From assembly GCF_037042905.1 (NCBI RefSeq), contig NC_087245.1:15874001-15938000 (forward strand): 64,000 nt of DNA, read 5' to 3'. How positions within the stretch are numbered: position 1 is the first letter of the stretch; each line of letters begins with the position of its first letter. Below, in pieces: positions 8,795 to 53,900 of the stretch. The stretch comes from Lytechinus pictus (lineage: Eukaryota). The translations under genes and the position numbers were made by a program. Below the pieces are notes generated by a model, which worked only from the letters and a program-made list of their open reading frames with translations, was not told where the DNA came from and made no database searches.

Positions 8795-9018
8795 CACTCT
8801 AAAAAACACTGAGTAAAATTTTACCCAATATTGGGTAGAAAGGGAAAATGCTTGTTTGCTGGGTATTTTTGTTACCCTCATATTGGGCAAAATGCATGTT
8901 TAAACCGTAAATTTCAACGCAACATTGCGTAAAATTGACAAAATATTTGGTATCTTTTTACCCACCAACATGCACGTTCCCATTTTACCCAATATAGGGT
9001 AAACCTATTTTTAGAGTG
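8795..9018 (+). mobile_element. CACTCT-terminated MITE (copy 1)
   Basis: TIR CACTCTAAAAA / TTTTTAGAGTG, with internal TTTACCCAATATTGGGTA palindromes. A second copy is inverted at 42838-43056. Confidence 0.85.
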
Positions 9019-9742
9019 TAATAAGACAAGGAAAGTGCATCTTTCTACGGACGATACTTCGGCTTTAATCTCCAACATCAACAGTATCGGGTGGGTTAAG
9101 GGGATGTCATTCCCGATGTGATCAGACAAAAATCAATCGGAATTGAGACGATTATAGGAACGATTTTTATCTTGAGACAGACGAGCCCGTCCTCCATCGT
9201 CTCACATCTCGACAAGAAAACTAGGCTTCGATGTCTTTCTTTATCTTGATTGGCTAAGAAGGGGAGGGGTATTGAATTCAGAGGTATAGTGGACTAGTCT
9301 TGTCGCTGAGAATGTTATCCTGTAAGACGAGATAAAGTTTCACGATTTTATCTCTGGAATCACTTGAGACAGAAACAAACTTTCAACCTTGCATTAACGA
9401 CGAAAGTTTCACGAAGTGAAATGATCTTAATCAACTTATCATTATCACATGATCATGGTTAGCTTATGTAATGACAACCTTGCTTGAAAAGAGACGATGA
9501 ACCATCTTTATTTGTGGGGCATCAACCTGTGAACACATTAGCTAATGTACAAAAAGGAATGAAAGTTTGTCCATCTAACGAACTGTATTTGATGATACTT
9601 TCAGAATCTTGGTATCCCCGTGCAGGTTATTAACATTGTTAGAAGATGTTATGGAAGGGAATGACAACATATTTTGATTATCCATGATACAATCATCCAG
9701 AACGTTAAGGGGACAAACGTTATCCGTCATTGCCATAGTATA

Positions 9743-10216
9743 TAGAGAGTTTTCGCATTTGCTACGGAGCCGCTCTCTACAACACACACATTCCTTTAAA
9801 AATGTAATCAAAATCACAATAGAGAGCTGAGAGGTTTTGGTCGAAAGTTGGTGGACCAGGGTGGTGTTTCATAAAGCTGTTCGTAAAGGTACGCACAACT
9901 TTACGCACGACTGAAACATGTTCTTAGGTGCTAAATCAGTTACATAGGGAGATCGTATAGTACAAGAAAGGGTCACCAGTATACATGAGGTCATTCGTAA
10001 CTTACGAACATCTTTATGAAACGGGTCAGCCGATCATCCGAATATTTGCACCGGACGAACAATTGCAAAAATGTGGTTTTCCAGAGTTAAGAGATTCCGC
10101 TGCTGTCCTGGTCCACCAACTTTCGACAAAAGCCTTTCAGCTCTCCATTGTGATTTGACTTGCATTTTTAATGGAATTGGTGCGTTGTAGACAGTGGCTC
10201 CGTAGTAAACTCTCTA
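9743..10216. mobile_element. Long-TIR (foldback-like) MITE interrupted by a nested MITE
   Basis: 9743-9860 and 10107-10216 are ~110-bp imperfect inverted repeats (e.g. TCGAAAGTTGGTGGACCAGG / CCTGGTCCACCAACTTTCGA). Confidence 0.8.
9859..10027. mobile_element. Nested MITE (Harbinger/Tourist-like)
   Basis: TIR GTTTCATAAAGCTGTTCGTAA / TTACGAACATCTTTATGAAAC. Confidence 0.75.
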
Positions 10217-13919: not shown

Positions 13920-16738
13920 GCGCCAACGGTGAAATGTTTATATTTCAAGAATTCATCATGTTATCATTTTTGTGGAGTTTTGCTATCAATGGAAATGAAT
14001 TCACATTCGCTGCAAAATCAAATTAATTTACCCTATCAAAATTATGAATCTTGTAATATAAAAAAAAATTAAACCCGATTAGACCACGAAGATATGCATA
14101 TTAAATGAATGAGCTTGTTAAATAAGGAAAATGAAAATGCAAATCAATGTACACCAAATTAGTGCCTTGTTTTATTACACATAAATATTGGAAACACGAA
14201 AATCAACATCCCAAAAACCTCACTCTATAAGATGCGTTTGTACATAATGGAGAGTTTACTAAATAAACACTTGAACCCATAACCATTAGCGTGGAAGTTT
14301 GGTTAGTGAAAAATAATGTCAGATGAAAAAGGAAAGGATTCACTTTGCATTCTACCGCTAGCTTCAAATGGGTACTAATCGGATTTTAGTGAGATTCACT
14401 GCTGCATGCCAGTCTAGATTGCTTTCTTGGGATGGCTATTCGACTGAGATCTCCTGACAGTTCTAGAACAAACATTAACTAGATGAGTCTTCTGAATGGA
14501 ATTTAAAGAAACAAAACACTTGACTTTGTCGCTTTTATGTATAAAGATCGGATATTTGCTATTTTTAGTCTACTAAGGTTGGAACCTATTTTAATTGAGA
14601 TATTTGGGTTATTCACTTTACTATACTATATACAAAAAAGGATTAACGTAACCGCGTGGGCTTTGCACGCGGGACTGTTTACCTTCACATTAAAGTGACC
14701 TATCTATTCTTGTATTTTGTTTCATTTACCTATTTACAAATTTACGAAAAATATAGTGCACGTGAAACGTTATTTTCAGCATTCTTAAAGAATTAAAACC
14801 GAAATAAACAAAACCTAAAGAAGTCCAAATCCGATTGCCCGAAATTTCTTCCCAAGATTACTTAGTTTTCTCAAAATCCTCAGGTTCCTCGTGGAAAATG
14901 CTTCTCTCTCTCTGCGTAAAAGACCCGCGTAGAAGGTTTCACATTAGTGCCACATTCACACTACATAAACCGATTCCAACCCGATCAAAGCTGTGTCCAA
15001 TGACATAATATATTTTGGGTTGGAGTCAATCTAACTGATTTGACAGTAGCTTTATCCTTCCCAGTCACTTGTCTGGAAGAAAATATCTAATATCAAGTAC
15101 ACAATATACTAAAGCACGTCATCATAGTAGTAACTTGATTAATTGTTTCATGTAAAAAAATGTTGTTGGAAAGTAAACCTCGAACTAAAATCATACAAGC
15201 AACTTAAAAGATTGAGCTGAGTAATCGAAGAAAATGAACTGACAACTTTCGTTCGGCTGGTCGGTCTAACAAACTATGAGCCTTATACATCGACTACAGG
15301 TTATTAAGATAATATAAAGATATGTGGATGTAAGATTTTTGTGTAAGTACATGGTAAAGTTTATATTTCCCTTTAACATGCAGGATGTTTTCTAAAACCT
15401 ACTCTGCAAAAATTACCTTTGAAATATTATTTCATGAAAATTATGAAAATCAAAACTTTTCGTATTCTTCATTTCAACCCTTATGTAAATAAATGTTTTG
15501 TACCGCAAAATCGTAAAATAGCCTTAAAATGTTTCTCTCGCTTTTATTATTGTTTCGCTCAGGCGTTCTAGTCATTCATGCGATTTTACTCCGATGAGTG
15601 CATGTCGTAAAGATTCCGTATGTCCGTTTAAAAAAAAACTAGTTATTGTGTTATGCTGTGAATAAATTGGTTTCAAACGGTAGCCATTTTGACATAAAAA
15701 TTAAACCAGTTTTTGCCCCCTCTAAATTCCTCGTCCCACGCTACGCCCCTGTCCCCTCTGATTGGCATAGAAGCCAGTATGAATGAGCAGCGTCACCGTG
15801 TCATGCCTGTTATCAAACATCAATGTGCCCGAATATTACGGATCGATAGACTGAACACGACACGGTCCACCCCGTGTGCTGTAGGCCTACGATAAAGACA
15901 GCGTTAAGTTGTGTCCACACTTGATGTTATAGATTTGAACCACTACGAATATCAGCCACCGTCAGCCATATAGATCAAACAAATTGTTCTTTTTCAAGAA
16001 ATAAAATCGCTGTCATTTCTTGCATAACATGTATGATGTAATTGTCACGTATTGTTTAATAATTTCTGTAAATTATTCGTTTCAAGATGAGCATGAGGTT
16101 TATTATAACCATTGTCTTTAGTTTTCTGACGGCGGGAAATGTGGCTGTGTGGATGAGGTTACAATGAGGAACCGGTCGTGCGTTCTATTTCGATAAGCAC
16201 ATTTCGTCTTGTCAAAACTTATCCTTTCTCTGCGTGCCTTCGATCTGCGACCAGAGCTGGATTGGAGAACTCGTGGCGGGAGACTCTGTTAGATTAACGT
16301 CAAATTACCCCCGGCGTTGCAACCGATGTATGCATCCACATCGACAAACCCTTTCATTTCTTTTCGGAGACATCACTGGATAGAAAATCACATCCATGTC
16401 AATATTTCTCGATGAATAAGAAGAAAGGCGATCATTACGCCTTCGAGACATATTTAGCCCTCGAAGAGTGGACTCTCCAGATTGTGATGTTTGATGACAT
16501 GTCATTTTTTTTTTTTTTTCAAAAGCAGAATACATTCGTGTGCATTATAATGCTTCATGCGCAAACTCAAGCCATTGCCCGAACCATCCATGTAAAGTCT
16601 TCATTTGTCACAGATCACGAGAAACTGCACTATAATAACAAAATTGTAAAAACACTAAAAACGTCATCGTCGTAATTTTTTTACACATTGTTGTAGCCGA
16701 TGCATGATATTTTTTTAACTGAATCTTGATAGTTAAAG

Positions 16739-18103
16739 ACAAGGCAAAAGCGATTTTGTGTCTCGCCCTTATGAAAATAACCAGCAATATCGTGATTTGC
16801 GAGGGCGCGCAACATAATTGTATCAAAACTTCATTGTGAAATGACTGGGATGGAATAACACTTGTCATTAGAGCCTTGCACGTAAACTTTAATGTTGACC
16901 TGAAAATGACCTTTGACCTTACCATGTGACCTCTGACTGCAGCATAACATGCAGGTCGCCTAAGTACATCTACCATCCAAGTTTTGTTGAAAAGTGACTT
17001 ACGGTTGCGGAGTTACGTGTCATAAGAGAGTCTTGCATGTAAACTGTAACGTTGACTTGAAAATGACCTTTGACCTAACCATGTGACCTCCGACTGCAGC
17101 ATGACATGGTCCCCCAAGTCCATCTACCATCCAAGTTTGGTTGAAAAGTGAGTTACGGTTGCGGAGTTAGGTGTCATAAGAGAGTCTTGCATGTAAACTT
17201 TAACGTTGACCTGAGAATGACCTTTGACCTTACCATGTAACCTCCAACTGCAGCATAACATGCAGGTCCCCAAGTCCATATACCATCCAAGTTTGGTTGA
17301 AAAGTGACTTACGGTTGCGGAGTTAGGTGTCATAAGAGAGTCTTGAATGTAAACTTTAACGTTGACCTGAAAATGACCTTTGTTGTAGCCATGCATGATA
17401 TTTTTTTAACTGAATCTTGATAGTTAAAGACAAGGCAAAAGCGATTTTGTGTCTCGCCCTTATGAAAATAACCAGCAATATCGTGATTTGCGAGGGCGCG
17501 CAACATAATTGTATCAAAACTTCATTGTGAAATGACTGGGATGGAATAACACTTGTCATTAGAGCCTTGCACGTAAACTTTAATGTTGACCTGAAAATGA
17601 CCTTTGACCTTACCATGTGACCTCTGACTGCAGCATAACATGCAAGTCCCCCAAGTCCATCTACCATCCAAGTTTGGTTGAAAAGTGAGTTACGGTTGCG
17701 GAGTTAGGTGTCATAAGAGAGTCTTGCATGTAAACTTTAACGTAGACCTGAAAATGACCTTTGACCTTACCATGTGATCTCCGACTGCAGCATAACATGC
17801 AGGCCTCCAAGTCCATCTACCATACAAGTTTGGTCGAAAAGTGACTTACGGTTGCGGAGTTAGGTATCATAAGAGAGTCTTGCATGTAAACTTTAACGTT
17901 GACCTGAAAATGACCTCTGACCTTACCATGTGACCTCCGACTGCAGCATAACATGCATGTCCTCAAGTCCATCTACCATCCAAGTTTGGTTGAAAAACGA
18001 CTTACGGTTGTGGAGTTATGGGTCATTTGGTTTGTGACGGACGGACGACGGACGACATTTGGATTCATAAGTCTCGCCTTCACCTCTGGTGGGCGAGACA
18101 AAA
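16739..18103 (-). mobile_element. Helentron-associated non-autonomous element (HINE/DINE-1-like) with internal tandem repeats, partly duplicated
   Basis: Sub-terminal inverted repeats TGTCTCGCCC (16759, 17450) / GGGCGAGACA (18091). Short inverted repeat GTCTCGCC...GGCGAGAC at 18071-18099. (GACG/GGAC)n microsatellite near 18036-18056. Small 3' hairpin CAAAA-GCGA-TTTTG. ~156-bp central repeats. Confidence 0.8.
16884..18020. repeat. ~156-bp tandem repeat units inside the HINE (7 unit starts, one truncated)
   Basis: Units start at AAACTTTAA(C/T)GTTGACCTG near 16884, 17041, 17195, 17351, 17575, 17732 and 17888. Confidence 0.9.
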
Positions 18104-30265: not shown

Positions 30266-31620
30266 GAGAAACGAGTCTGTATATTGCAATTTCAACTAGT
30301 TTCGGGTATTTTTTTAACAGAAGCTGCATGTGCACAAGCGCAGCCGTATTGAAATGATAAATTTCACAAATCTAGTTACGTCTGACGAAAAAAAAAATAT
30401 ATACAACGAAGGTAGACAGTATCCTTATTCGGTAAAATGTGACAGGGTCTTTTTTTCAGAACGTATCCCGTATTTTATGTCGAAGTACATATGTCATGTA
30501 TGTGGTCCGCACGTCATGCCCCGATTGTAGTTTGGTAGGTTATGACTCCTGTATCATAATGCACGAGATAAATTGATTGATTGTAGCGTAATCAAGATGA
30601 TCCGCTTGCCGAATTCCTCCCTCTCTCATTTTCTTGTCGCGTATCTTAATTAGCATACGAGATTAATCACGTGAAAGCATGGAGAATTTACTCACAAAGT
30701 GGACTCGTAACCACCACCATGGATTTCACGTCTGAGATTTTGGATGAAATTACCCAAAACAAAACATCCGATGGATGGTATTTCAGTGTGGGATCTGGGA
30801 TGCTAGACAAAGGAGGGGAATGGTGTTGTGTATCGACCTATATATATAGTAGGAGAGAAAAAAGGGTTTGTAAACGAATAGACATAAGTTTTCATTTACA
30901 CTAAAACCAATATAACCAATAAATAAGGTATAATAAATGTTGTTTCACAAGACAGCTAATCTTATTGAATGTTTGTTCCTTTTTGCATTCAGAAAGCCAA
31001 TTCTGAGTCTTTGTAGCCCAATCATATTTTAAGGATTGTTTTAAAGACTATACACAAAAAAATGTAGCTCTAATAATGTTACGTCATAAATGAAGGAAAT
31101 ATTCAGCAATTTTGTTTGGTCCAAAACAATTTAACTCAAAATACAATACTCGATTTTGGTATGAATTCTACCACACCAAACTTGTTTGATTCGAATTCCA
31201 AAACAAAAGGAGTAATGAGAGCTAGAGCAACAGACGTATAAAAACATGAAAAGCAGAAATGAAAGAAATGGAAAGCAGGGGAAGGGGTAAACATTCCATA
31301 ATCATTTGCGAATTATTTTACATCGAAATATCTCCCACCACCATGTTCTCGATTTATTGAACTGGATTCTTTAATCCATGTCTGAACAATTTAGGTATTC
31401 CTTGGTGTCATTTCAAGGTATCGTTTTGAACTTGCTGCAAGTAAAATCTTAATTTTGACATTTCTCCTAGAGGAAAGAATACATCACATTCATTTCTTCA
31501 ACATCATGTTGTTTCTTCGTGTAAGCGGAGATATCAATCGAGGAATCTTCATTTACTTATTCAGAGCTTGCGGCGCCAATCCGGGAATGCCAAGTTTGAA
31601 GGAAATCATTACGTGTTTCA

Positions 31621-31926
31621 AATGACAGGGATTAAGTACTTTCAAAGTAAATGTTACAAAGTTGTTTCATTTCATTATGTAAAAATATGTAAAGTTAGAA
31701 ATATGAATCATGTTTTCTTATTAGCGGCATTAGTTACAATAGAAATTAAGACCAGAATATTCGACCGCCTTTCTAATGATAGGGTTTAAGTACTTTCAAA
31801 GTAAATGTTACAAAGTTGTTTCATTTCATCATGTAGAAATATGTAAAGTTAGAAATATGAATCATGTTTTCTTATTAGCGGCATTAGTTACAATAGAAAA
31901 TTAAGACCATAATATTCGACCGCCTT
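31621..31926 (+). repeat. ~152-bp tandem duplication
   Basis: 31621-31771 is repeated at 31775-31926. Confidence 0.92.
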
Positions 31927-35365: not shown

Positions 35366-35393
35366 CTATCGTTATCTACCTGCCTATCTATTT

Positions 35394-35426
<33 letters not shown>

Positions 35427-35448
35427 TTACTTATCTATCTATCTGTCC

Positions 35449-35521
<73 letters not shown>

Positions 35522-35684
35522 TTATCTATCATCTATCTATTTAGCTATATATCTATTTATCTATATATTTATCCATCTATCTATCTGTCTATCTATCTGT
35601 CTACCTATTATATATCTATCTATATGTCATCTATCTATCTATCTATCTCTATATATCTATCTCTCTATCTATCCATCTATCTAT
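35366..35684. repeat. (TATC)n / (GATA)n microsatellite
   Basis: Direct reading. Confidence 0.95.
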
Positions 35685-36386
35685 TCGTGTATTTCTCTCT
35701 ACATCGACTCACGTCGCCAATTCCTTGATTTAACATACTACATCCACACAGGAAACCGGTGTCCCTTTTCCTTCTCATAAGTCTGCTATGTTTCTTTCTG
35801 CCTCGTCGCCATCACCTTTTTAGCACACACGGTATTCTTGCAATGTCTTGGTAAAGAAGCAAAACCACGGGGAATCTAAAGTGGGGTTGGCGATGACAGT
35901 ACCATATGATAACAGGTGCTAATTAAACGAGGATGCACTGATATTTAAACTCTAGAATTACACATCCTTCCTATCGATATTCCACGAAATATGAAAAACA
36001 TGCGATGATTGACCGTGTTTGACTGCACCCATGTTAGCCAAGTGTCGCGAATCTATGCGCAGGATGGTCAACCGCAGCGTACAGACGTTCGAAAAATGTG
36101 ATTTTCTTCACGGCTTAACAATCATTGCTCATCGGGTAAACAAATCCGTTTTGGGTTTGAGTTTTGTCACTTGCACTTAAGGCTGTCAAGCAATGGTGTC
36201 CAACCACATTTTAAACATGTTAAGAATGTTTGAATTATTTGGGATTCGTTTATATCACATTGCCATTTATAATGTTTATTGAATTGACCGATGCCAGTTG
36301 AACTTCATGATTTACAATGATTGTATTGTCAATATCATTACCCCATAAGCCAGAATTCAGTCTCATCGCAATAGTGAACCATCTTA

Positions 36387-37572
36387 AGCCCCTTTCACAA
36401 TTGACGTACGACCATTTGCGACCTTTTGGTCGTGCGACAGGCTGCAACAGGCATCAATCGCTAGTCATCTCGTAAGATCGCACAGAGGCTTTCACAGTTG
36501 CAACAGCTGTCGTACAACAAAAACAACCAGTAAACCCCGTTGCACGAGAAAGTCGCATATGCTCTTATTGTGCTCGTGCGATCACATGCGAGTGTTGCAC
36601 GAGGGATTGCGAGTGGAACGGTCGCATACATGCGAATGAAACGGTAGTGCAATGTTGTAAGCCGTTGCGATCGGTCTTGCAACAGTCTTATGGCCCATAT
36701 TATTATCGCAACCAGTCGCAAGACAGGTCTCTGTACATGTAGGTCGCTTGCACATGTGCAAGTGTTGCACGACCTCCAGTCAAGTAAATGCGACTACTTA
36801 GTTGTGCCACCTCTCGCACCAAGTCGTACAACGTTGAACAACACTCGCACGATGATCGCCCGACCGATGGTACGACCCCGGGTACGGCCTGATGCGAGTG
36901 AATCGATCGTATTTGATCGCGTTTGGATTTTGAACATGTTCAAAGTTCAGATGTGACCAATCACGACCACCTCGAGTTCGTGCGACCGTCTACAACGACT
37001 GCGAGTGCTCGCAAGACACCAAGAGATCGATCGTGCAACAACAAGAAAAAACTGTTGCAGGCGGTCGTAAACTGGTCGGACGTCAAATGTGAAAGGGGCT
37101 GAACGGTCGCATACATGCGAATGCAACGGTAGTGGAATGTAGTAAGCCGTAATTTCGATCGGTCTTGCAACAGTCTCATATTATCGCACCCAGTCGCAAG
37201 ACTGGTCTCTGTAGGTCTCCAGCACATGTGCAAGTGTTGTACGACCTCCAGGCGACTAAATGCGACTATACTTAGTTGTGCCACCTCTCGCACCAAGTCG
37301 TACAACGTTGAACAACACTCACACGATGATCGCCCGACCGATGGTACGACCTGTTGCGAGTGAATCAATCGTATTTGGTCGCGTTTGGATTTTGAACATG
37401 TTCAAAGTTCAGATGCGACCAGTCACGATCACCTCCGACCACCTCGAGTTTGTGCGATCGTCTACAACGACTGCGAGTGCTCGCAGGACACCAAGGGATC
37501 GATCGTGCAACAACAAGAAAAAACTGCTGCAGGTGGTCGTAAACAGGTCGTACGTCAATTGTGAAAGGGGCT
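36387..37572 (+). mobile_element. Composite Harbinger-like MITE: full unit A (36387-37100) + right-part unit B (37101-37572)
   Basis: TIR AGCCCCTTTCACAATTGACGTACGACC at the left end. Inverted TIRs end at 37100 and 37572. TTA/TAA flanks. Confidence 0.88.
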
Positions 37573-37658
37573 TAATGAACAGCTTTATGAAACAAACCCT
37601 GATTTGTCCACCACCGATGTGCATATCTTCGCCCTCATACGCATCGTTATGCAAACAT

Positions 37659-38030
37659 GCACTCGCAGTCGTTGTAGACGATCGCACGAACTCGAGGTGG
37701 TCGTGACTGGTCGCATCTGAACTTTGAAGATGTTCAAAATCCAAACGCGATCAAATACGATCGATTCACTCGCATCTGATCGTACCATCGTTCTAGAGAT
37801 CATCGTGTGATCGTTGTTCAACGTTGTACGACTTGATGCGAGATGTGGCACAACTAAGTAGTCGCATTTAGTCGACTGGAGGTCGTACAACACTTGCACA
37901 TGTGCTAGCGACCTATAGAGACCAGTCTTGCGACTGGATGCGATAATATATAGGCCATAAGACTGTTGTAAGACCGATCACAACACGGCTTACAGCATTG
38001 CACTACCGTTGCATTCGCATGTATGCGACC
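37659..38030 (-). mobile_element. Internal fragment (C) of the same MITE, inverted
   Basis: Reverse complement of approximately 36620-37010. Confidence 0.85.
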
Positions 38031-38058
38031 TTTCCTCGGTGTTACAAAATAGGAGTTA

Positions 38059-39920
38059 AGCCCCTTTCACAACTGACGTACGACCAGTTTACGACCGCCT
38101 ACAACGATTTTTTCTTGTTGTTGCACGATCGATCTCTTGATGTCTTGCGAGCACTCGCAGTTGTTGTAGACGGTCGCACGAACGCGAGGTGGTCGTGATT
38201 GGTCGCATCTGAACTTTGAAGATGTTCAAAATCCAAACGCGATCAAATACGATCGATTCACTCGCATCAGGTCGTAACATCGGTCGGGCGATCATCGTGT
38301 GAGTGTTGTTCAACGTTGTACGACTTGGTGCGAGAGGTGGCACAACTAAGTAGTCGCATTTACTCGACTGGAGGTCGTACAACACTTGCACATGTGCTAA
38401 TGACTTAAGCCCCTTTCACAATTGACGTACGACCTGTTTACGACCGCCTGCAACAGTTTTTTCTTGTTGTTGCACGATCGATCTCTTGGTGTCTTGCGAG
38501 CACTCGCAGTGGTTGTAGACGAACGCACGAATTTGAGGTGGTCGTGACTGGTCGCATCTGAATTTGAACATGTTCAAAATCCAAACGCGATCAAATACGA
38601 TTGATTTACTCGCATCAGGTCGTACCATCGGTCGGGCGATCATCGTGTGAGTGTTGTTCAACGTTGTACGACTTGGTGCGAGAGGTGACACAACTACGTA
38701 TAGTCGCATTTAGTCGACTGGAGGTCGTACAACACTTGCACATGCGCTAGATACCTACAGAGACCAGTCTTGCGACTGGTTGCAATAATATAAGACTGTT
38801 GCAAGACCGATCGAAATTACGGCTTACAACATTCCACTACCGTTGCATTCGCATGTATGCGACCGTACAGCCCCTTTCACAATTGACATCCGACCAGTTT
38901 ACGACCGCCTGCAACAGTTTTTTCCTGCTGTTGCACGATCGATCTCTTGGTGACTTGCGAGCACTCGCAGTCGTTGTAGACGGTCGCACGAACTCGAGGT
39001 GGTCGTGACTGGTCACATCTGAACTTTGAACATGTTCAAAATCCGAATGCGATCAAATACGACCGATTCACTCGCATCAGCTCGTATCCGGGGTCGTACC
39101 ATCGGTCGGGCGATCATCGTGGGAGTGTTGTTCAACGTTGCACGACCTGGTGCGAGAGGTTGCACAACTAAGTAGTCACATTTACTCGACTGGAGGTCGT
39201 ACAACACTTGCACATGTGCTAGCGACCTACATGTACAGAGACCTGTCTTGCGACTGGGTGCAATAATATGATGGGCCATAAGACTGTTGCAAGACCGATC
39301 GCAACGGCTTACAACATTGCACTACCGTTGTGTGCGACCGTTCCCCTCGCAATCCCTCGTGCAACACTCGCATGTGATCGCACGAGCACAATAGGATCAT
39401 AAGCGACTTACTCGTGCAACGGGTTTCACTGGTTGTTTTTGTTGTACGACAGCTGTTGCAACTGTGAAAGCCTCTGTGCGATATTATGAGATGACTGGCG
39501 ATTGATGCCTGTTGCAGCCTGTCGCACGACCAAAAGGTCGCAAGTGGTCGTACGTCAATTGTGAAAGGGGCTTAACATGTACATAGACCAGTCTTGCGAC
39601 TGGTTGCGATAATAATATAGGCCATAAGACTGTTGCAAGACCGATCGCAACACGGCTTGCAACATTGCACTACCGTTGCATTTGCATGTATGCGACTGTT
39701 CCATTCGCAATCCCTTGTGCAACACTCGCATGTGATCGCACGAGCACAATAAGAGCATATGCGACTTACTCGTGCAACAGGGTTTACTGGTTGTTTTTGT
39801 TGTACGACAGCTGTTGCATTTGTGAAAGCCTCTGTGCGATCTTATGATATGACTAGCGATTGCAGCCTGTCGCACGACCAAAAGGTTGCAAATGGTCGTA
39901 CGTCAATTGTGAAAGGGGCT
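38059..39920 (-). mobile_element. Full copy D of the same MITE (38059-38407 + 39576-39920), split by a nested insertion
   Basis: The two halves rejoin to the element sequence ...GTGCTA(GC)GAC(C)TACATGTACA.... TTA on both outer flanks. Confidence 0.85.
38408..39572 (-). mobile_element. Second copy of the A+B composite, inverted and inserted in copy D
   Basis: The same A/B junction occurs at 38868/38869. It shares variants with 36387-37572. Confidence 0.88.
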
Positions 39921-40152
39921 TTAAAGAAAAATAAATAAATAAATGGACTTACGTTATAGGTTCTTTACTGTACTTATTCCAATCAGTCTTGATGCGAGAC
40001 ATCTATACTTTAAATGGTAAGGACACTCATTACTGATAATACTAAAAAGGGCGTTTTATCTTAACTACTTCATCATAAATTATCTGTAGACGCGAAGATT
40101 GATTGCAAGGCGGAAGCAATGCAGTAATGATAAAATTGTTGCATTTTCATTG

Positions 40153-41897: not shown

Positions 41898-42837
41898 GGG
41901 CACTGGATTCAGAGGTACACGTTTTTAGATGGTGGCATTAAAGGTCGGTTCCCAGATTTAAATGATTACTTCTGGAAGGATCACGTCTGGAAATCTATAA
42001 TCATTCACATAAACACAAACAGTCTCTCACCATCGGACCCTCATTGTCCTCCACACACATTACACACCCACTCGTAAGCACACTCACCCACACACTCCCG
42101 TTCTCGACACTTTCACCAACACTTGCACATGCACACAAACACAAACAGCCTTTCTTCGTCCTCACACACTTTACATACCCCTCTATATCCTCTCAGTCCC
42201 ACACACCTACATACTTCGTTCCCAAATACCGGGCCCAAATACACCCCCAAAGATGAAGAAAAGCATTGACATGTGGTACTTGTTTTTTTTTAAAGAAAAC
42301 TTCGTTAACGTGTAATATATATATCGAACGCAGCGTAAATGGAAAATATCTACTGGTGCCCAAGGGCACATTATATGGCTTAAGACAGTGAGAAACTTAA
42401 TAATTGTATACTTCCAATGGTCCGGGTTTCCTAATAACTCTTCAACAAAATTTGAACCTTTTACGACGATTCGTAACTGTCCTTGATTACCTTTTCTGCA
42501 GTAAAACTCGATAAGGTTCATTAGTGCGTGGGAAACGACTCCAAAACAACAATAAATGGCGTTTGCAAAGGATCTCTTTCCTCGTATTTTCAAATGAGAA
42601 TGAATGGAAGGATTGTAACGATAATGATGACTCAGCGAAGTAAAGACCAATTTAAGTTCTATCTCGTTGACATTTCAATTCATCGTTTGTCTTCACTGCG
42701 TGTATTATATAAGGAACCAACAAATCAAGCAAAGTTTAATGTTTTGGAAACAGATCAACCCGGTCCGATTAACTTGTCTTAAGATAATTGCATAAGCAAG
42801 ATACGAACCCGAAAGCAATGAGCAGATAGGCATTATA

Positions 42838-43056
42838 CATTCTAAAAGTTTACCAAATATTGGGTAAAATGGGAACATGCATGTTTGTTTGGTAAAAAGA
42901 TACCAAATATTTTGTAAATTTTAAGCAATGTTGCGTTGAATTTACCCTTCAAACATGCATTTTGCCCAATATTGGGGGGAAAAATTACCCAGCAAAAATG
43001 CACGTTCCCTTTTTTACCCAATATTGGGTAAATTTTTACTCTCTGCTTTAAGAGTG
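42838..43056 (-). mobile_element. CACTCT-terminated MITE (copy 2), TA flanks
   Basis: Reverse-complement homolog of 8795-9018. TA on both sides. Confidence 0.85.
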
Positions 43057-43916: not shown

Positions 43917-44190
43917 GACAGGTGTGTTGGCTCAGTTGGTAGAGCGTCCGTCTCACAACCGGGAGGTCGGGGGTTCAATCCCCGGTCGCGTCAGACCAAA
44001 AGACCTTAAAAGATGGGAGTGGCTGCTACCCTCTTTGGCGTTCAACGATTAAAGGGATAGAGCCTTGTCGATCTGGCGCTGCACAGCGGCTGCCGGGCCC
44101 ACGATCAATTGGGCAAAGCAAATTATCGGAATATTTCATTTCATGTCTATTTCGAACAATAAATTATAATAATAAATAATAATGAATTAT
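43917..44190 (+). mobile_element. tRNA-derived SINE (family B), near full length
   Basis: A box TGGCTCAGTTGG and B box GGTTCAATCCC. Body CAGACCAAAAGACCTTAAAAGATGGG...TTTGGCGTTCAACGATTAAAGGG. (AAT)-rich tail. Confidence 0.88.
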
Positions 44191-47438: not shown

Positions 47439-47690
47439 ATTTTTTCTGACGTTATCAATCATTTGTATGTACAATTTATCATAACTTCAGACTTCAGAAT
47501 ACGGGCCTAAGAAGCAATCCTCATTATCATGAATTCCGGTATGTTTGGATCACCTTGGATTAGTTCACCTCCCCTTCCCCCGACGTGAAAAAGACATGTG
47601 AAATAGTCCAAACCATCTGTTTTCTTTTTAGAATTTCTTAGCTGCATTTTTTCTGACGTTATCAATCATTTGTATGTACAATTTATCATA
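47439..47690 (+). repeat. Templated insertion (copy of 49208-49363) between 45-bp direct repeats
   Basis: 47439-47483 equals 47646-47690. 47491-47646 matches 49208-49363 with about 2 mismatches. Confidence 0.92.
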
Positions 47691-48077: not shown

Positions 48078-49224
48078 GTCCCGTATTCTGAAGTCGGGCT
48101 TAACTTACACCATGGTCTAACTCTGTGCTAAAATTATGGGAAGCCAAACGTTTCGAAATTGTGTTCACAGTGAATGCTTCTCATCAGTGGCGTACCTGGC
48201 ATATTTCGTCAGGGGGGGGGGGGGGCAAGCGACAAGGATGAGCAGGTGGGGGGGGGGTATAGTAGGCATGGACGTATATAGGCACAATTTTTTCAAGGGG
48301 GGGGCTGATAATCATTGCCCAAATATCAACTTCACAGTTTTAGGTCAATTTACAATAAAATAATATAAAAATAATAATTGCGAGGGCGAAGCGCGAGCTG
48401 AATTTTTCTAAAAATTTAGACCTAAAACGATTCATTTTGTGCACTTAATTATGAATAGGATGGGTATCTTCCTTAATAAATTATGCGAGCGCGAAGCGCG
48501 AGCTAAAATTTTGATATTTCTAACTGGACACTAGACATTCTAAGCAGTTTTACAGGATGGGCATCTAAACAGTTGTGCGGGCGCGAAGCGCGAGCTAAAA
48601 CCTTTGATATTCCGACTTAAGAACTGGATATTCTAAGCACTTTTAGTAACCATGAACAAATTGGTTTCTAACTGAATAATTAATTGATGCGCGCGAAGAG
48701 CGAACTGAAAATTAAAGATATTCCCCCCTGAAAAGTGGACATTCTAAGCACCTTTTTTTTTTTTACTTTGAACAAGATGGTAGTTAAAAACAATTAATTG
48801 GTGTGAGCGGGAAGCGCGAGCTGAAAATTTTTGATATTTCGACCTGAAAACTTTACATTCTGAGCACTTAATTTAATTATGAACAAGATGGAATTTTATG
48901 CGAGTGCGAAGCTCGAGCTAAAAAAGATTTGTTCGCTTCTTTTTTTTTTGGCTTGTGACTCATCAGGGGGGGGGGGGCAGTCTGCCCCCCTGCCCCCTTA
49001 GGTAAGCTAGTGCTTCTCATGTTTACTGTGCTCTTTACTAATTCTTTAATGGTGAAGACAACTGTCATACTTATCCTTCCCAGACAGTTAATAATGTTTT
49101 GGGAGTCAATGAGCTGATACATTGAACGTGTACTGTTAGAGATTTATGTAAATACTGGCTTTCCATAGTAAAACCACAACTAAAAACCAGAGTTTAAATT
49201 AATCCCGACTTCAGAATACGGGCC
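48078..49224 (+). mobile_element. Harbinger/Tourist-like MITE (copy 2) interrupted by a hAT element
   Basis: Homologous to 46245-46553 on both sides of the insert, with the same TIRs. Confidence 0.85.
48185..49012 (+). mobile_element. hAT-type non-autonomous element with ~100-bp internal repeats
   Basis: Perfect 8-bp TSD CTTCTCAT. Termini CAGTGGCGTACCT / AGGTAAGCTAGTG. Six GCGAGCGCGAAGCGCGAGCT-like motifs. Confidence 0.9.
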
Positions 49225-51076
49225 TAAGAAGCAATCCTCATTATCATGAATTCCGGTATGTTTGGATCACCTTGGATTAGTTCACCTCCCCTTCCCCCGA
49301 CGTGAAAAAGACATGTGAAATAGTCCAAACCATCTGTTTTCTTTTAATAATTTCTTAGCTGCAATTGAACAAAACAGAACCAAAATCAAAAATCGGATAT
49401 TGACATCGCCCCGACCAACTGAAAAAACGAGTGTTTGGCATTGGAAGTGAAGATAAACACTAATTTGATGTGAGCTTCTTTTTTTTCTATCGCGGCCTTG
49501 AATGTTCAAACGTTTAACTTAAAATGCCACCACACCGACATAAATCTACGAATGATTAAAGAAAGAAAGAATAAATCAACATTACGTGATCAATATTTGA
49601 TTAGACGCTGGTACAGTTGTTTGAAATGCCTCGTTCTTCATTAAAAGCAGGTGCATCATCAACATCATTGACGCACTGACAAATGTGTCTTTTGGTTAAT
49701 GATACTTCCTTAATTTCTAAAACATATCCTCACCAATATCGCATATACAGTGATTAAGCTGCCCCGTCTCTCCGAGCAAAAAGGAAATTAAAGATCTGTC
49801 AAAGAAGAAAAAAATCACAGATGGTTCTTAATTTTCAGATATAAGTGGATAAGCGAGATGAAGAAAAGGGGAGACGGAAACAGAGAGAGAGAGGGAGGGG
49901 GGGGGGGGGAGATAACTGCCATATTTTCTATTATGTTGGTCGCGATTATACAAAGCACTTACAATGTATAGCGATCAATAAAACTCTGTTTAAACAAATA
50001 AATGAATGCGAAATATGTATTCATTTTTAGGTGTCATGTCTTCTTAGACAATTTCATGGACATCCTGGCAGTTTAATTATGTCGTTTTTGGCAAACATGA
50101 CCTCTGGGGAGATTTGCATCCGCGAAAGCTCTTCCGCGACCACGGGGGGGGGGGGGGGTGGAGGCTTTTCGCCAAAGGAATTTTTATGTTGGGGTGGCGG
50201 AGTTGATAAATGTGGTACGTATTTAAGATATTACAAAATATGTTGTACCAGAGGTTCCCCATCCAAAAACATTTAGTCAAGTGAGAATCGAGATACCTCA
50301 ATGTCTTGCCTCGGTATTGTCTGTTATCAAAAATTAGCGATAAAAAAAAAACAATTTCGATATTTTTCAGGGAAGTAAGTGATTGAATACATGACCTTGC
50401 ATTTTTGTAAGCGAGACGTCAATTCCGAAGTTGTGAATTTTCCTAATCTAATCATCATGGTTGTTTCAAACAATTTTCGAAAAGAATCACGTAAAATTTG
50501 ATCATTTGCACTTTTACTTTCTTTATTTCACTTTCCACACTTTCATGGTTGTCATCATAACACGCAGCTACGTAGGATGATTAACTTGCGTTGGTTTCTA
50601 CCAGATGAAAAGGCTAATCAAATTTAAACCGATAAACATGTAACAATATACCTATAACAATGCGTTCAGTAGGAAACACCGATACCTATTAAACCATAGT
50701 TTTGTTTCATTCACAGTAAAAAAGAACTAGATTTCCCAAAGGCATACTGGCAAATTTCCCCGAGGCCTTGACAATTAAAAAAAATATTATGACATAGAAT
50801 TACATATTGAATAGCTTGGAAAGTCGTCTTTAGCAGTGGCCACTGCTATGAACATGGGCAAAGAAAGCGGGTCATGGGAAAATAATGACTAAGAAGTGGG
50901 TGTTAAACTGAATATACAATAAAAACGTTATCGAAAACAGAATATGCTTAAAAATAATTGAAATTAATAACCCCCGAAAAGCCTAAAGTTTTAAAACGAG
51001 TATAAATAAATACTTAATTAAATTTCATACACCCTGGAATATATCATTTTTTTGAAATTATATTCAATATATATTA

Positions 51077-51338
51077 AATTCTTGATTCCATTTTCATTTA
51101 AAACATAATACAAAGTAATATAAAGTAATATAAATCAAGTACAATTTTACAGACGAGCATTCTTACCTTGTAAAACAAAAAACAGTATAATATTGAGCAT
51201 AAATGGAAATGAGGGGGGGGGGGGTCCACTTATAGCAAAGCTTGTAGAGTTTGGATCCCCCTTGGAAATGAAGAAAATATTGTATATTATTCATATATGC
51301 GTATATATACAGGAAAGAAAAAAGAGAAGGAACAAAAA
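51077..51338 (-). mobile_element. Older 3'-UTR fragment of the same LINE family, inverted
   Basis: Reverse-complement similarity to 53154-53430 (e.g. AAATCAAGTACAATTTTACAGA / TCTGTAAAATTGTACTTGATTT). Confidence 0.85.
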
Positions 51339-51616
51339 GGTCGAAATCATATTAATGTAACCATAATTACTGACCAAATTATTAAATTATATGTACATGG
51401 ATTCGCATAATGCATGATAATTGGACAAATATTGAAATTACTATTCTAAAAAACATTCCCATGCGAAATTACAAGCAGGTTCAGTCATGATACGGAGATA
51501 CAGGACTGTAACTGGCTTATGCTTCTAAATAAAATGAAAGTATAAACAAGCATTTATTGTTTGTTTTTATATATCGCGAGTAAAATGATCAAATAATCAA
51601 ACATATTATAATCGAA

Positions 51617-52795
51617 ATGGCGCGAATTCTAAATAGGAGTAAAGACAAGAAATTCGAAAATCATAAATCTAGTCACCTTGTGGGTATTTTCCTGGACTAC
51701 TCCAAGGCCTTCGATACCATCAATCATGAAATCCTACTTAAAAAAATGTCTCACTATGGTGTGCGAGGGAAGGCCTTGGAGTGGTTCAGGAGTTACTTAT
51801 TCAACAGACAACAATACGTGTTTGTTAAAGATCATAACTCCAATTTAAAATATGTTAACTGTGGAGTCCCTCAGGGTAGCTTATTAGGCCCACTTCTTTT
51901 CACAATTTATATAAATGATTTCTGTAGATCATCCAAAATATTGTCCCTTATCTTGTTTGCAGATGATTCGACCTTATTTTTTTCTCATCAGAATCCACAA
52001 ACTTTAGTTGATGTTATCAATTCTGAACTTATTAATGTTACTGAATGGATAAGAGCCAATCGATTATCTTTGAACCTTAACAAAACAAAATACATGTTAT
52101 TTAGTAATTCCATAGACAAGTTACCGATGAACATTATGTTTGATAATACCTTATTACAAATGGTACCTTACACCAAATTTCTTGGTATAACAGTTGACAG
52201 TAAACTTTCTTGGAAAAATCATATTGAAAATATATCCAAAATAATTTCACGAAATATAGGTATTATTAATAGGCTAAAATTTTGCATTCCCTCCACATCA
52301 CTAATCATGCTCTACTCATCCTTAATCTTGCCTTATTTAAACTACGGGATTCTTATTTGGGGTGATACCCATCAATACTTATTAGACAAATTGTTGCTTT
52401 TGCAAAAGAAAGCACTTCGTGTTATTTATAGTACATGTTTCCGTTCTCATACGGACCCACTTTTTCTAGAAAGTAAACTGTTGAAAGTCAAAGACCTGTA
52501 TTTACTACAGTTAGGGCACTTCATGTATAGTTATAATAATAATGCACTTCCCCATATTTTTGATGCCATGTTCCCTAAAAATCAATTTTATCATAACTAC
52601 CCCACGAGACACTCTGACGAACTTCACATTCCACTTTACAGAACTTTACTGGCCAAAAATACATTCCTTTTCAACGGTCCTAAATTCTGGAACTCACTAG
52701 CTAATAATATTAAAGACAGTGTCTCCTTAAATTCATTCAAACATAAACTCAAACTTATCCTGCTTAATTCCTATAATTCTTCGCAACGGAACTAA
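51617..52795 (+). CDS. LINE reverse transcriptase C-terminal portion (392 aa; first 15 codons come from flanking DNA)
   Basis: Motifs [45 protein letters not shown] and C-terminal [10 protein letters not shown]...SLNSFK. No endonuclease domain. Confidence 0.9.
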
Positions 52796-53443
52796 CACTT
52801 CATTATCTTGATTTTAATCATTACATTTTTCACTTTTATTGTTTTATCTTTTTTCATCTGATATTGTCCAGTTATATCATCTTTTGTCATTTCACCAGAT
52901 CAAGCTGGTTCGTGGTCAGCCCTTTCCCATTCTTAGTATTCCTCCTTTTATAAAGTAGTTATCTTGTCTTGTACTGTCCTGTCTTTTGTTTTGTCTTGTC
53001 TTCTATGTCTTGTCATCCCCTCTCTCTCTTTCTGTTTTTTTTTCTTTCTTTCCTTTCTTCTGTCTTGCGCAACACATCCTTTACTACGAAGACCTCTTTG
53101 TGTGAAAAGCTTTGCATTAGTTCAGTAATTATATTTGCATCCGTATGATTTCTTTTGTTCTCTTTTTCTTTCCTGTAATACATATAATTATGTACGCATA
53201 TCAGAATAAGTCTACTATACTTTTTTCATTTCCAAGGGGGATCCACACTTTACAAGCTTTGCTTTTTAGTGGATCCCCCTCATTTCCATTTATGCTCTAT
53301 ATTATACTGTTTTTTCTGTTTTGTTTTTTTTACGAAGTAAGAATGCCCTTCTGTAAAATTGTACTTGATTTGTATTACTTTATATTACTTTGTATTATGT
53401 TTTTTGAATGGAAATGAAAATAAAAGAATTGAAAAAAGAATTG
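51662..53443 (+). mobile_element. 5'-truncated non-LTR retrotransposon, CR1/L2 group (Crack/Daphne-like)
   Basis: RT ORF, a ~650-bp 3'UTR with a hairpin, AATAAA, and a (GAATTG)-type tail. The boundaries are fixed by comparison with the empty site at 53701-53717. Confidence 0.9.
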
Positions 53444-53900
53444 AACCTCGAGATTCACCAGGTAAGAAGTCATGTATTTCGTCACCCAGTATTTTATAAA
53501 TTTCATCATCAATAATACAGTTCTAATTAATTATCAGTTGCTATGGTAACCGTGCTTGTAAGTAAGACAAAATCACACACTTCACGTACACGACGTAAGT
53601 ACACTTGGAAAAATGATATGGTTTCTAGAATAATCAAATAATCAAACATATTATAATAAAAATGGCGCGAATTCTAAATAGGAGTAAAGACAATAAATTC
53701 GAAAATGATCAACCTCGAGATTCGCCAGGTAAGAAGTCATGTATTTCATTACCCAGTATTTTATAAATTTAATCATCAATAATACAGTTCTAATTAATTA
53801 TCAGTTGCTATGGTAACCGTGCTTGTAAGTTAGACAAAATCACACACTTCACGTACACGACGTAAGTACACTTGGAAAAATGATATGGTTTCCAAAATAA
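53444..53900 (+). repeat. ~267-bp tandem duplication (copy 1 = 51588-51661 + 53444-53633, split by the LINE; copy 2 = 53633-53900)
   Basis: Near-identical sequence with a few substitutions. Confidence 0.9.

Follow-up and report, generated by a model that had tools for sequence, protein, structure and literature searches.

The window, by which we mean the whole 64-kb stretch of DNA that was analysed, carries at 36387-39920 a nest of copies of a 714-bp element. The best explanation overall, which we consider probable, is that a MITE moved in trans piled up at this place and that a composite of two copies (A+B) formed once and was then moved as a unit. Two such composites lie in the nest as inverted arms 835 bp apart. 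Both end exactly at terminal inverted repeats (TIRs) next to TWA, and their flanks are unrelated. One of them (B'+A', 38408-39572) splits D, a full inverted copy at 38059-39920, at element positions 356-358, and the halves of D rejoin cleanly and collinearly, with no sequence lost at the interruption. The TIR-exact ends and the clean rejoining of D favour transposition over a local inverted duplication, and they support the original prediction both in the mobilisation of A+B as one unit and in the placing of one composite inside another family member.

The element family and its ends

Reference copy A is a 714-bp non-coding element with TIRs of about 28 bp. A TIR scan of the window gave eight matches, all inside 36387-39920, where none was expected by chance, and all six outer element ends in the window adjoin TTA or TAA. 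Public sequencing runs were also consulted. Shared sequence words pointed to 24 runs, none of which contained half of the words (best 0.31), and four of the 24 were compared on 35800-37170, which comprises the flank, A and 70 bases of B. The run figures come from the 15 of 29 joints, 24 of 445 loose ends and 24 of 5146 contig pieces listed. X1 and X5 are DNA runs; X7 is guessed to be RNA, with uneven coverage and the flank absent. Among the loose ends, TA+A stands before the left TIR (36387) in at least 19 X1 and at least 17 X5 contigs, and TTA or TAA follows the right TIR (37100) in at least 15 and at least 14, respectively. Beyond the TWA, the sequence is unrelated. These loose ends support the Harbinger-like assignment that had been made from TIR style and TWA flanks, TWA being the target that a passage of PMC13668399 defines for PIF/Harbinger. 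Judged from TIRs and TWA only, the family is likely non-autonomous, PIF/Harbinger-type and MITE-like, and it may already be catalogued in Repbase or Dfam.

TTAA-specific elements (piggyBac, Kolobok) have a TTAA duplication at both ends, and TA-specific elements (Tc1/mariner, Stowaway) have a TA duplication. Taken alone, the flanks of both composites would fit TTAA. A TTAA-specific element was ruled out by the right end of D and by the same contigs (at least 19 in X1 and 17 in X5), which read TAA directly followed by AGCCCC. A TA-specific element was ruled out as well, since the TAA-AG ends place AA beside the TIR.

A profile search of 63 of the 187 open frames of the window matched no transposase domain, which leaves no transposase gene to tie the element to the superfamily and counts against the assignment. 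Three open frames of the nest had no Pfam domain match, and Rfam returned nothing in the nest. A TIR 25-mer had no match in the metagenome scan, and the TIR scan of prokaryote genomes was also empty; three metagenome matches to a TIR 19-mer had no similarity beyond it and were taken as chance.

Summed contig depth over the element was about 24,000-110,000 against 38 on the flank in X1, and 25,000-119,000 against 82 in X5. The resulting ratio of about 300-2,900x is rough and puts the family, equally roughly, at the order of 10^3 copies. The depth of X7 was rejected as a copy-number measure because of its guessed RNA origin, its uneven coverage and its lack of the flank. In about a quarter of RNA run X24, 107 reads fell on the element and none on the flank, with 1 of 107 at least 99% identical. 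These reads derive from other copies and are uninformative about whether this locus is transcribed.

The element is rich in repeated TGCAAC/TCGCA-type motifs. The predicted fold of A is strong (z -12.8) and was rejected as a sign of function, since it is expected from the TIRs and internal palindromes. One imperfect palindrome, at 36905-36966 and its equivalents, surrounds a 16-bp perfect core and is broken by a change common to C and D. An internal-deletion derivative skipping 399 bp (36686 to 37086) occurs in X1 and X5 alongside other shorter derivatives. Loose ends in X7 and X24 also reveal a variant that diverges at 37054 and continues into another terminal sequence; it possibly represents a sister family.

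Anatomy of the nest and the composite as a moved unit

The extent first given for the nest, 36387-39920, and the positions within it all hold (Table 1).

Table 1. Features of the nest, with positions in the window.
Feature	Position	Strand	Remarks
Left flanking triplet of AB	36384-36386	+	TTA
A	36387-37100	+	Full 714-bp element; right (inner) TIR with T693G, common to A'
B	37101-37572	+	Element positions 230-714; begins GAA; gives AB its outer right TIR
Right flanking triplet of AB	37573-37575	+	TAA; differs from left TTA
Spacer	37576-37658		Non-family; no match to A
C	37659-38035	-	TIR-less inverted fragment, about element positions 622 to 227
Target triplet of D	38056-38058	+	TTA; about 20 bp from end of C
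D, first part	38059-38404	-	Element positions 714 to 359
Triplet at B' end of nested composite	38405-38407	+	TTA (TAA in A orientation)
B'	38408-38868	-	Element positions 714 to 230; 4.8% from B
A'	38869-39572	-	Full element, 704 bp; about 5.3% from A
Triplet at A' end	39573-39575	+	TAA (TTA in A orientation); other side differs
D, second part	39576-39920	-	Element positions about 355 to 1
Target triplet of D	39921-39923	+	TTA; perfect duplication with 38056-38058

The six segments of the nest have private indels and are 5-10% divergent. D, C and A'B' represent separate sub-lineages (7-10% divergence), as do A and B (6.6%). At the site equivalent to 38405-38407, A, A', B, B' and C read TAG. 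Positions 1-229 of B are absent from the whole window. The inverted repeat had been described as CpG-rich; the CpG observed/expected ratio of the nest is 1.31, compared to 0.87 in the rest of the window; GC outside the nest is 36%, and the window is AT-rich with microsatellites.

AB and A'B' are 5.1% apart (59 substitutions among 1165 aligned bases, and 21 gap letters in addition), and their longest perfect run is 72 bp. The junction proposed as common to them, GGGGCT followed by G(A/T)ACGG, is present in both, and TCGGA in the right TIR of A, ACAGG in the TIR of B and the extra TA were all found. As markers of the composite, these variants fared unevenly. The extra TA is the better one, being rare in the DNA runs: 125 of 28,828 in X1 and 77 of 30,208 in X5 (0.3-0.4%), or about 1-3 single-copy equivalents, compared to 804 of 3,868 (21%) in X7. 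In contrast, ACAGG is a weak marker, since it is widespread in the family (at 37073 it accounts for 47% of the depth in X1 and 72% in X5). A and A' have in common four substitutions and a 12-bp insertion that are absent from the other window copies; across the family in X1 and X5, this insertion is common, as is ACAGG. B and B' have in common seven substitutions and several indels. In a tree on the segment common to the copies, B+B' has support of 97/93, and A+A' is weak at 79/86.

The arms are inverted, lie close together and have a common junction, as would also result if a local fold-back duplication of AB had made B'A'. However, no flank is duplicated, both copies end at a TIR plus TWA, and D is interrupted without loss. 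The TIR-exact boundaries largely refute such a duplication, and we consider it very improbable. We give as little credence to an assembly artefact such as merged haplotypes. The region is repeat-dense, and none of the 24 of 5146 contig pieces listed spans 35800-37170; however, the divergence and private indels of the six segments argue against a merge, and a split D with its target triplets is no haplotype-merge pattern. Furthermore, the A/B junction was bridged by contigs of two independent runs and was thus not made by assembly. X7 record 23 reaches 50 and 70 letters to either side (6 differences, no gaps), and X1 record 8 reaches 94 and 70 letters (16 differences, 5 gap letters). X7 record 19, with 30 letters left of the junction, is one under the bridging threshold and carries the alleles of B itself. 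These contigs may represent other loci or orthologues of this locus. In X1 and X5, the match of the flank contigs breaks off at 36384, and the X5 contig ends three letters later without entering the TIR, which suggests that the AB site reads TAA, empty or heterozygous, in these samples.

A stronger rival is a pure local hop, in which one composite is the direct daughter of the other, with no wider subfamily and no homing. It would have moved by cut-and-paste to a site about 1 kb away, with the donor restored by gap repair. The rarity of the B-type TA allele in X1 and X5 fits this account, and without abundant or targeted composites, two separate landings within 1 kb would be improbable. In addition, the divergence of the pair (95% CI 3.9-6.5%) overlaps that of the flank, which is 4.1% in X5 and 3.1% in X1. 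However, a local hop leaves unexplained why D lies beside C and a composite inside D, these being different sub-lineages (7-9% apart). When polarised on four copies, the derived changes are uneven, 20 in AB and 36 in A'B' (p=0.044), which hints weakly at different ages, and X7 contains an AB-like junction about 99% identical with nothing on the left flank. We regard the local hop as a real possibility, while leaning against it.

The uneven changes indicate that AB may be younger than A'B'. At 5% divergence, the two are not a very recent pair, and the ongoing birth of composites that had been proposed stays conjectural. As part of the donor-triplet reading given below, which we judge unlikely, the AB composite may have been amplified recently in one lineage (compare the frequency of the B-type allele in X7 with that in X1 and X5).

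Cruciforms need near-perfect arms and a short spacer. The cruciform suggested for this inverted repeat is unlikely, with an 835-bp spacer and 5% mismatch. A read-through transcript could fold into a long duplex (dsRNA).

Several other features were observed in the window. On the plus strand, a 403-aa open frame at 51584-52795 matches RVT_1 (E 1.6e-25), a reverse transcriptase domain, and is probably a LINE fragment; pieces related to it lie near 51086-53900. A tRNA-Val(CAC)-like sequence at 43921-43993 (plus strand, 38 bits in Rfam) could be a gene or a SINE head. A 648-bp direct duplication at 95% (16688-18026) contains tandem units of about 154 bp, and a further 154-bp tandem pair lies at 31616-31926. 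A second small repeat family with internal inverted ends occurs at 8795-9020 and 42836-43056 (85% alike), and inverted arms are found at 9758-9860 and 10107-10209. A 160-bp segment is duplicated at 98% (47439-47690 and 49207-49366), with one copy between 45-bp perfect direct repeats. A TATC microsatellite of about 80 units (35373-35684) lies 700 bp left of the nest.

Flanking triplets and the origin of the composite

We infer the following order of events. A non-autonomous element would have been moved in trans by an unseen transposase. C would have arrived first or be a remnant, and D would have inserted at a TTA about 20 bp from it. The composite, which consists of A and the right two-thirds of B, would have arisen a single time, most likely by insertion of A into B at a non-canonical GAA. 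The right end of A, flanked by GAA and later carrying the T693G mismatch in its TIR, would have been cut poorly. The transposase would then have paired the left end of A with the right end of B and moved the 1.2-kb unit. One composite would have landed inside D and another 86 bp from C, leaving the long inverted repeat as a by-product.

The A/B join falls at the last base of A and is followed by GAA, a triplet one substitution away from TAA; B' has GTA there. The proposal that A inserted into B agrees with this join at a terminal base; the insertion itself is deduced, with B(1-229) missing and a site of GAA rather than TWA. In mPing, GAA flanks markedly lowered transposition (a passage of PMC4561436) and TIR changes lowered excision (a passage of PMC10288884). 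From these effects, a GAA-flanked inner end with T693G is plausibly weak.

Alternatively, the composite may have arisen from two head-to-tail copies by deletion of the first 229 bp of B, or by a template switch at 230 during gap repair, and have been mobilised afterwards. In favour of this, GAA is no TWA target, B(1-229) is absent, and position 229/230 (36615-36616) is a recurring breakpoint. B and B' start there and C within a few bases of it. In X1, at least 12 contigs diverge at this point, which is also where X1 records 3 and 7 and X5 record 11 begin or end. On the other hand, the join lies exactly at the terminal base of A, as transposase cutting would give, and A and B are too far apart for B to be a copy of A's own end. 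We consider this origin rather unlikely. The breakpoint suggests a longer relative with an extra segment at 229/230; the window lacks an 18-nt motif taken from the variant diverging at position 230.

Only D has a perfect 3-bp duplication (TTA/TTA), that is, one of the three complete insertions in the window. In the orientation of A, each composite is preceded by TTA and followed by TAA, compared to TAA/TAA for D, so that the mismatch is at the middle base. An inversion between the arms was rejected as the cause, since swapping the inner flanks keeps the pattern and the D halves are collinear. Point mutation and hairpin-templated repair are alternative sources of the non-matching triplets; for point mutation, the estimate for two of three mismatched insertions was 5e-4, a rough value computed after the pattern had been seen.

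The mismatched triplets may instead record overhangs derived from the donor. In the mPing model, staggered cuts within the TSD leave 5' overhangs on the donor, as described in a section of PMC4561436, and piggyBac ends carry donor TTAA overhangs, according to part of PMC7351741. By analogy, the geometry would be that of an element carrying its donor triplets as piggyBac carries TTAA. If overhangs from a TTA donor were ligated, and not trimmed, into a TAA target, exactly the TTA/TAA pattern would result, with the ligation step as the presumed part. Mismatched triplets possibly occur also at the joint at element position 161-165. Our literature search found engineered mPing mismatches and no paper on natural non-matching Harbinger TSDs, with most subscription journals outside its range.

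On the donor-triplet reading, landing at a near-cognate GAA would leave the element with a competent end at the donor TTA and a weak end at GAA, and this would automatically recruit the TIR of the host copy. Donor-triplet carry-over, an unrepaired mismatch, a weak GAA end and homing would together form a built-in route to composite families; we judge this joint reading unlikely. If it were true, Harbinger cleavage chemistry and donor sites could be read in genomes from non-matching TWA triplets, and composite births could be predicted from the target sequence.

Clustering and comparison with known systems

Three further insertions lie within 2 kb of C. If insertion were random, with 600-3,000 copies assumed in 0.5-1 Gb, a cluster of this kind would be expected at most about 0.001 times in a genome. 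TWA sites number 14 per kb in the element and 56 outside, making nesting less likely by chance. D, C and A'B' belong to separate sub-lineages, so hops from donor to daughter among these copies can account for at most part of the clustering. Among the 15 of 29 joints listed, at least four join an element end to the interior at positions unused at this locus: 161-165 (X1 and X5), 412 (X1, exactly on TTA), and 380 and 553 (X1 and X5, on opposite strands). Two of the four could be rearrangements. Chance would give 0.03 to 6.4 self-insertions genome-wide over the values tried, and the four joints are thus a hint only. Of the proposed preference for self-insertion, the local clustering stands, far above random, whereas a genome-wide preference is only suggested and depends on these assumptions.

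A precedent for tethering is Sleeping Beauty, whose insertions concentrate near its own binding sites (a passage of PMC4786924), and the Harbinger ORF1 protein binds the TIRs of its element (a passage of PMC2836001). By analogy, tethering is most likely the cause of the clustering: the transposition complex would be held at resident copies bound by a DNA-binding partner protein. Short-range hops would add to the clustering, and insertions tolerated in already neutral DNA could contribute.

MITE self-insertion and composite Harbinger structures are already published. No paper on the 714-bp family or on re-mobilised MITE dimers was found in the literature searched, which left out most subscription journals, Repbase and Dfam. 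The locus is a clear animal example of MITE nesting in which a nest-derived unit has moved again. Both composites would be discarded by pipelines, such as the one in the methods portion of PMC13668399, that require TSDs to be identical and retain the shortest of nested TIR pairs.

Like Tourist-like MITEs and non-autonomous PIF/Harbinger elements (mPing, Harbinger3N_DR, Harbinger-1M_cIno), the family is non-coding, TIR-bounded and high-copy, with 3-bp TWA flanks. At 714 bp, it is longer than mPing (430 bp). It also differs from Tourist-like and Harbinger elements in that two of three insertions have non-matching triplets and that an autonomous partner, which would share the TIRs and encode a DDE transposase and a Myb/MADF protein, was not found in the window frames searched. 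piggyBac and Sleeping Beauty, the precedents for donor overhangs and tethering, belong to other superfamilies. Nesting in or beside family members is known from the rice and maize multimers (Castaway, Gaijin, Tourist-Zm). Multimers make up more than 10% of 6,600 rice MITEs, and self-insertion is frequent in some families, according to the part of PMC5172404 that cites Jiang and Wessler (2001). The same part attributes multimers to independent insertions, whereas here a multimer-derived unit moved at least once more. A similar arrangement is that of Medicago MtPH-M-2-IIa, where a passage of PMC2213677 describes a younger element at the 5' side followed by the remains of an older relative, within outer TIRs and TSDs. 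As described there, that structure is a single locus of 21.7 kb, whereas the composite described here is a re-mobilised, duplicated unit.
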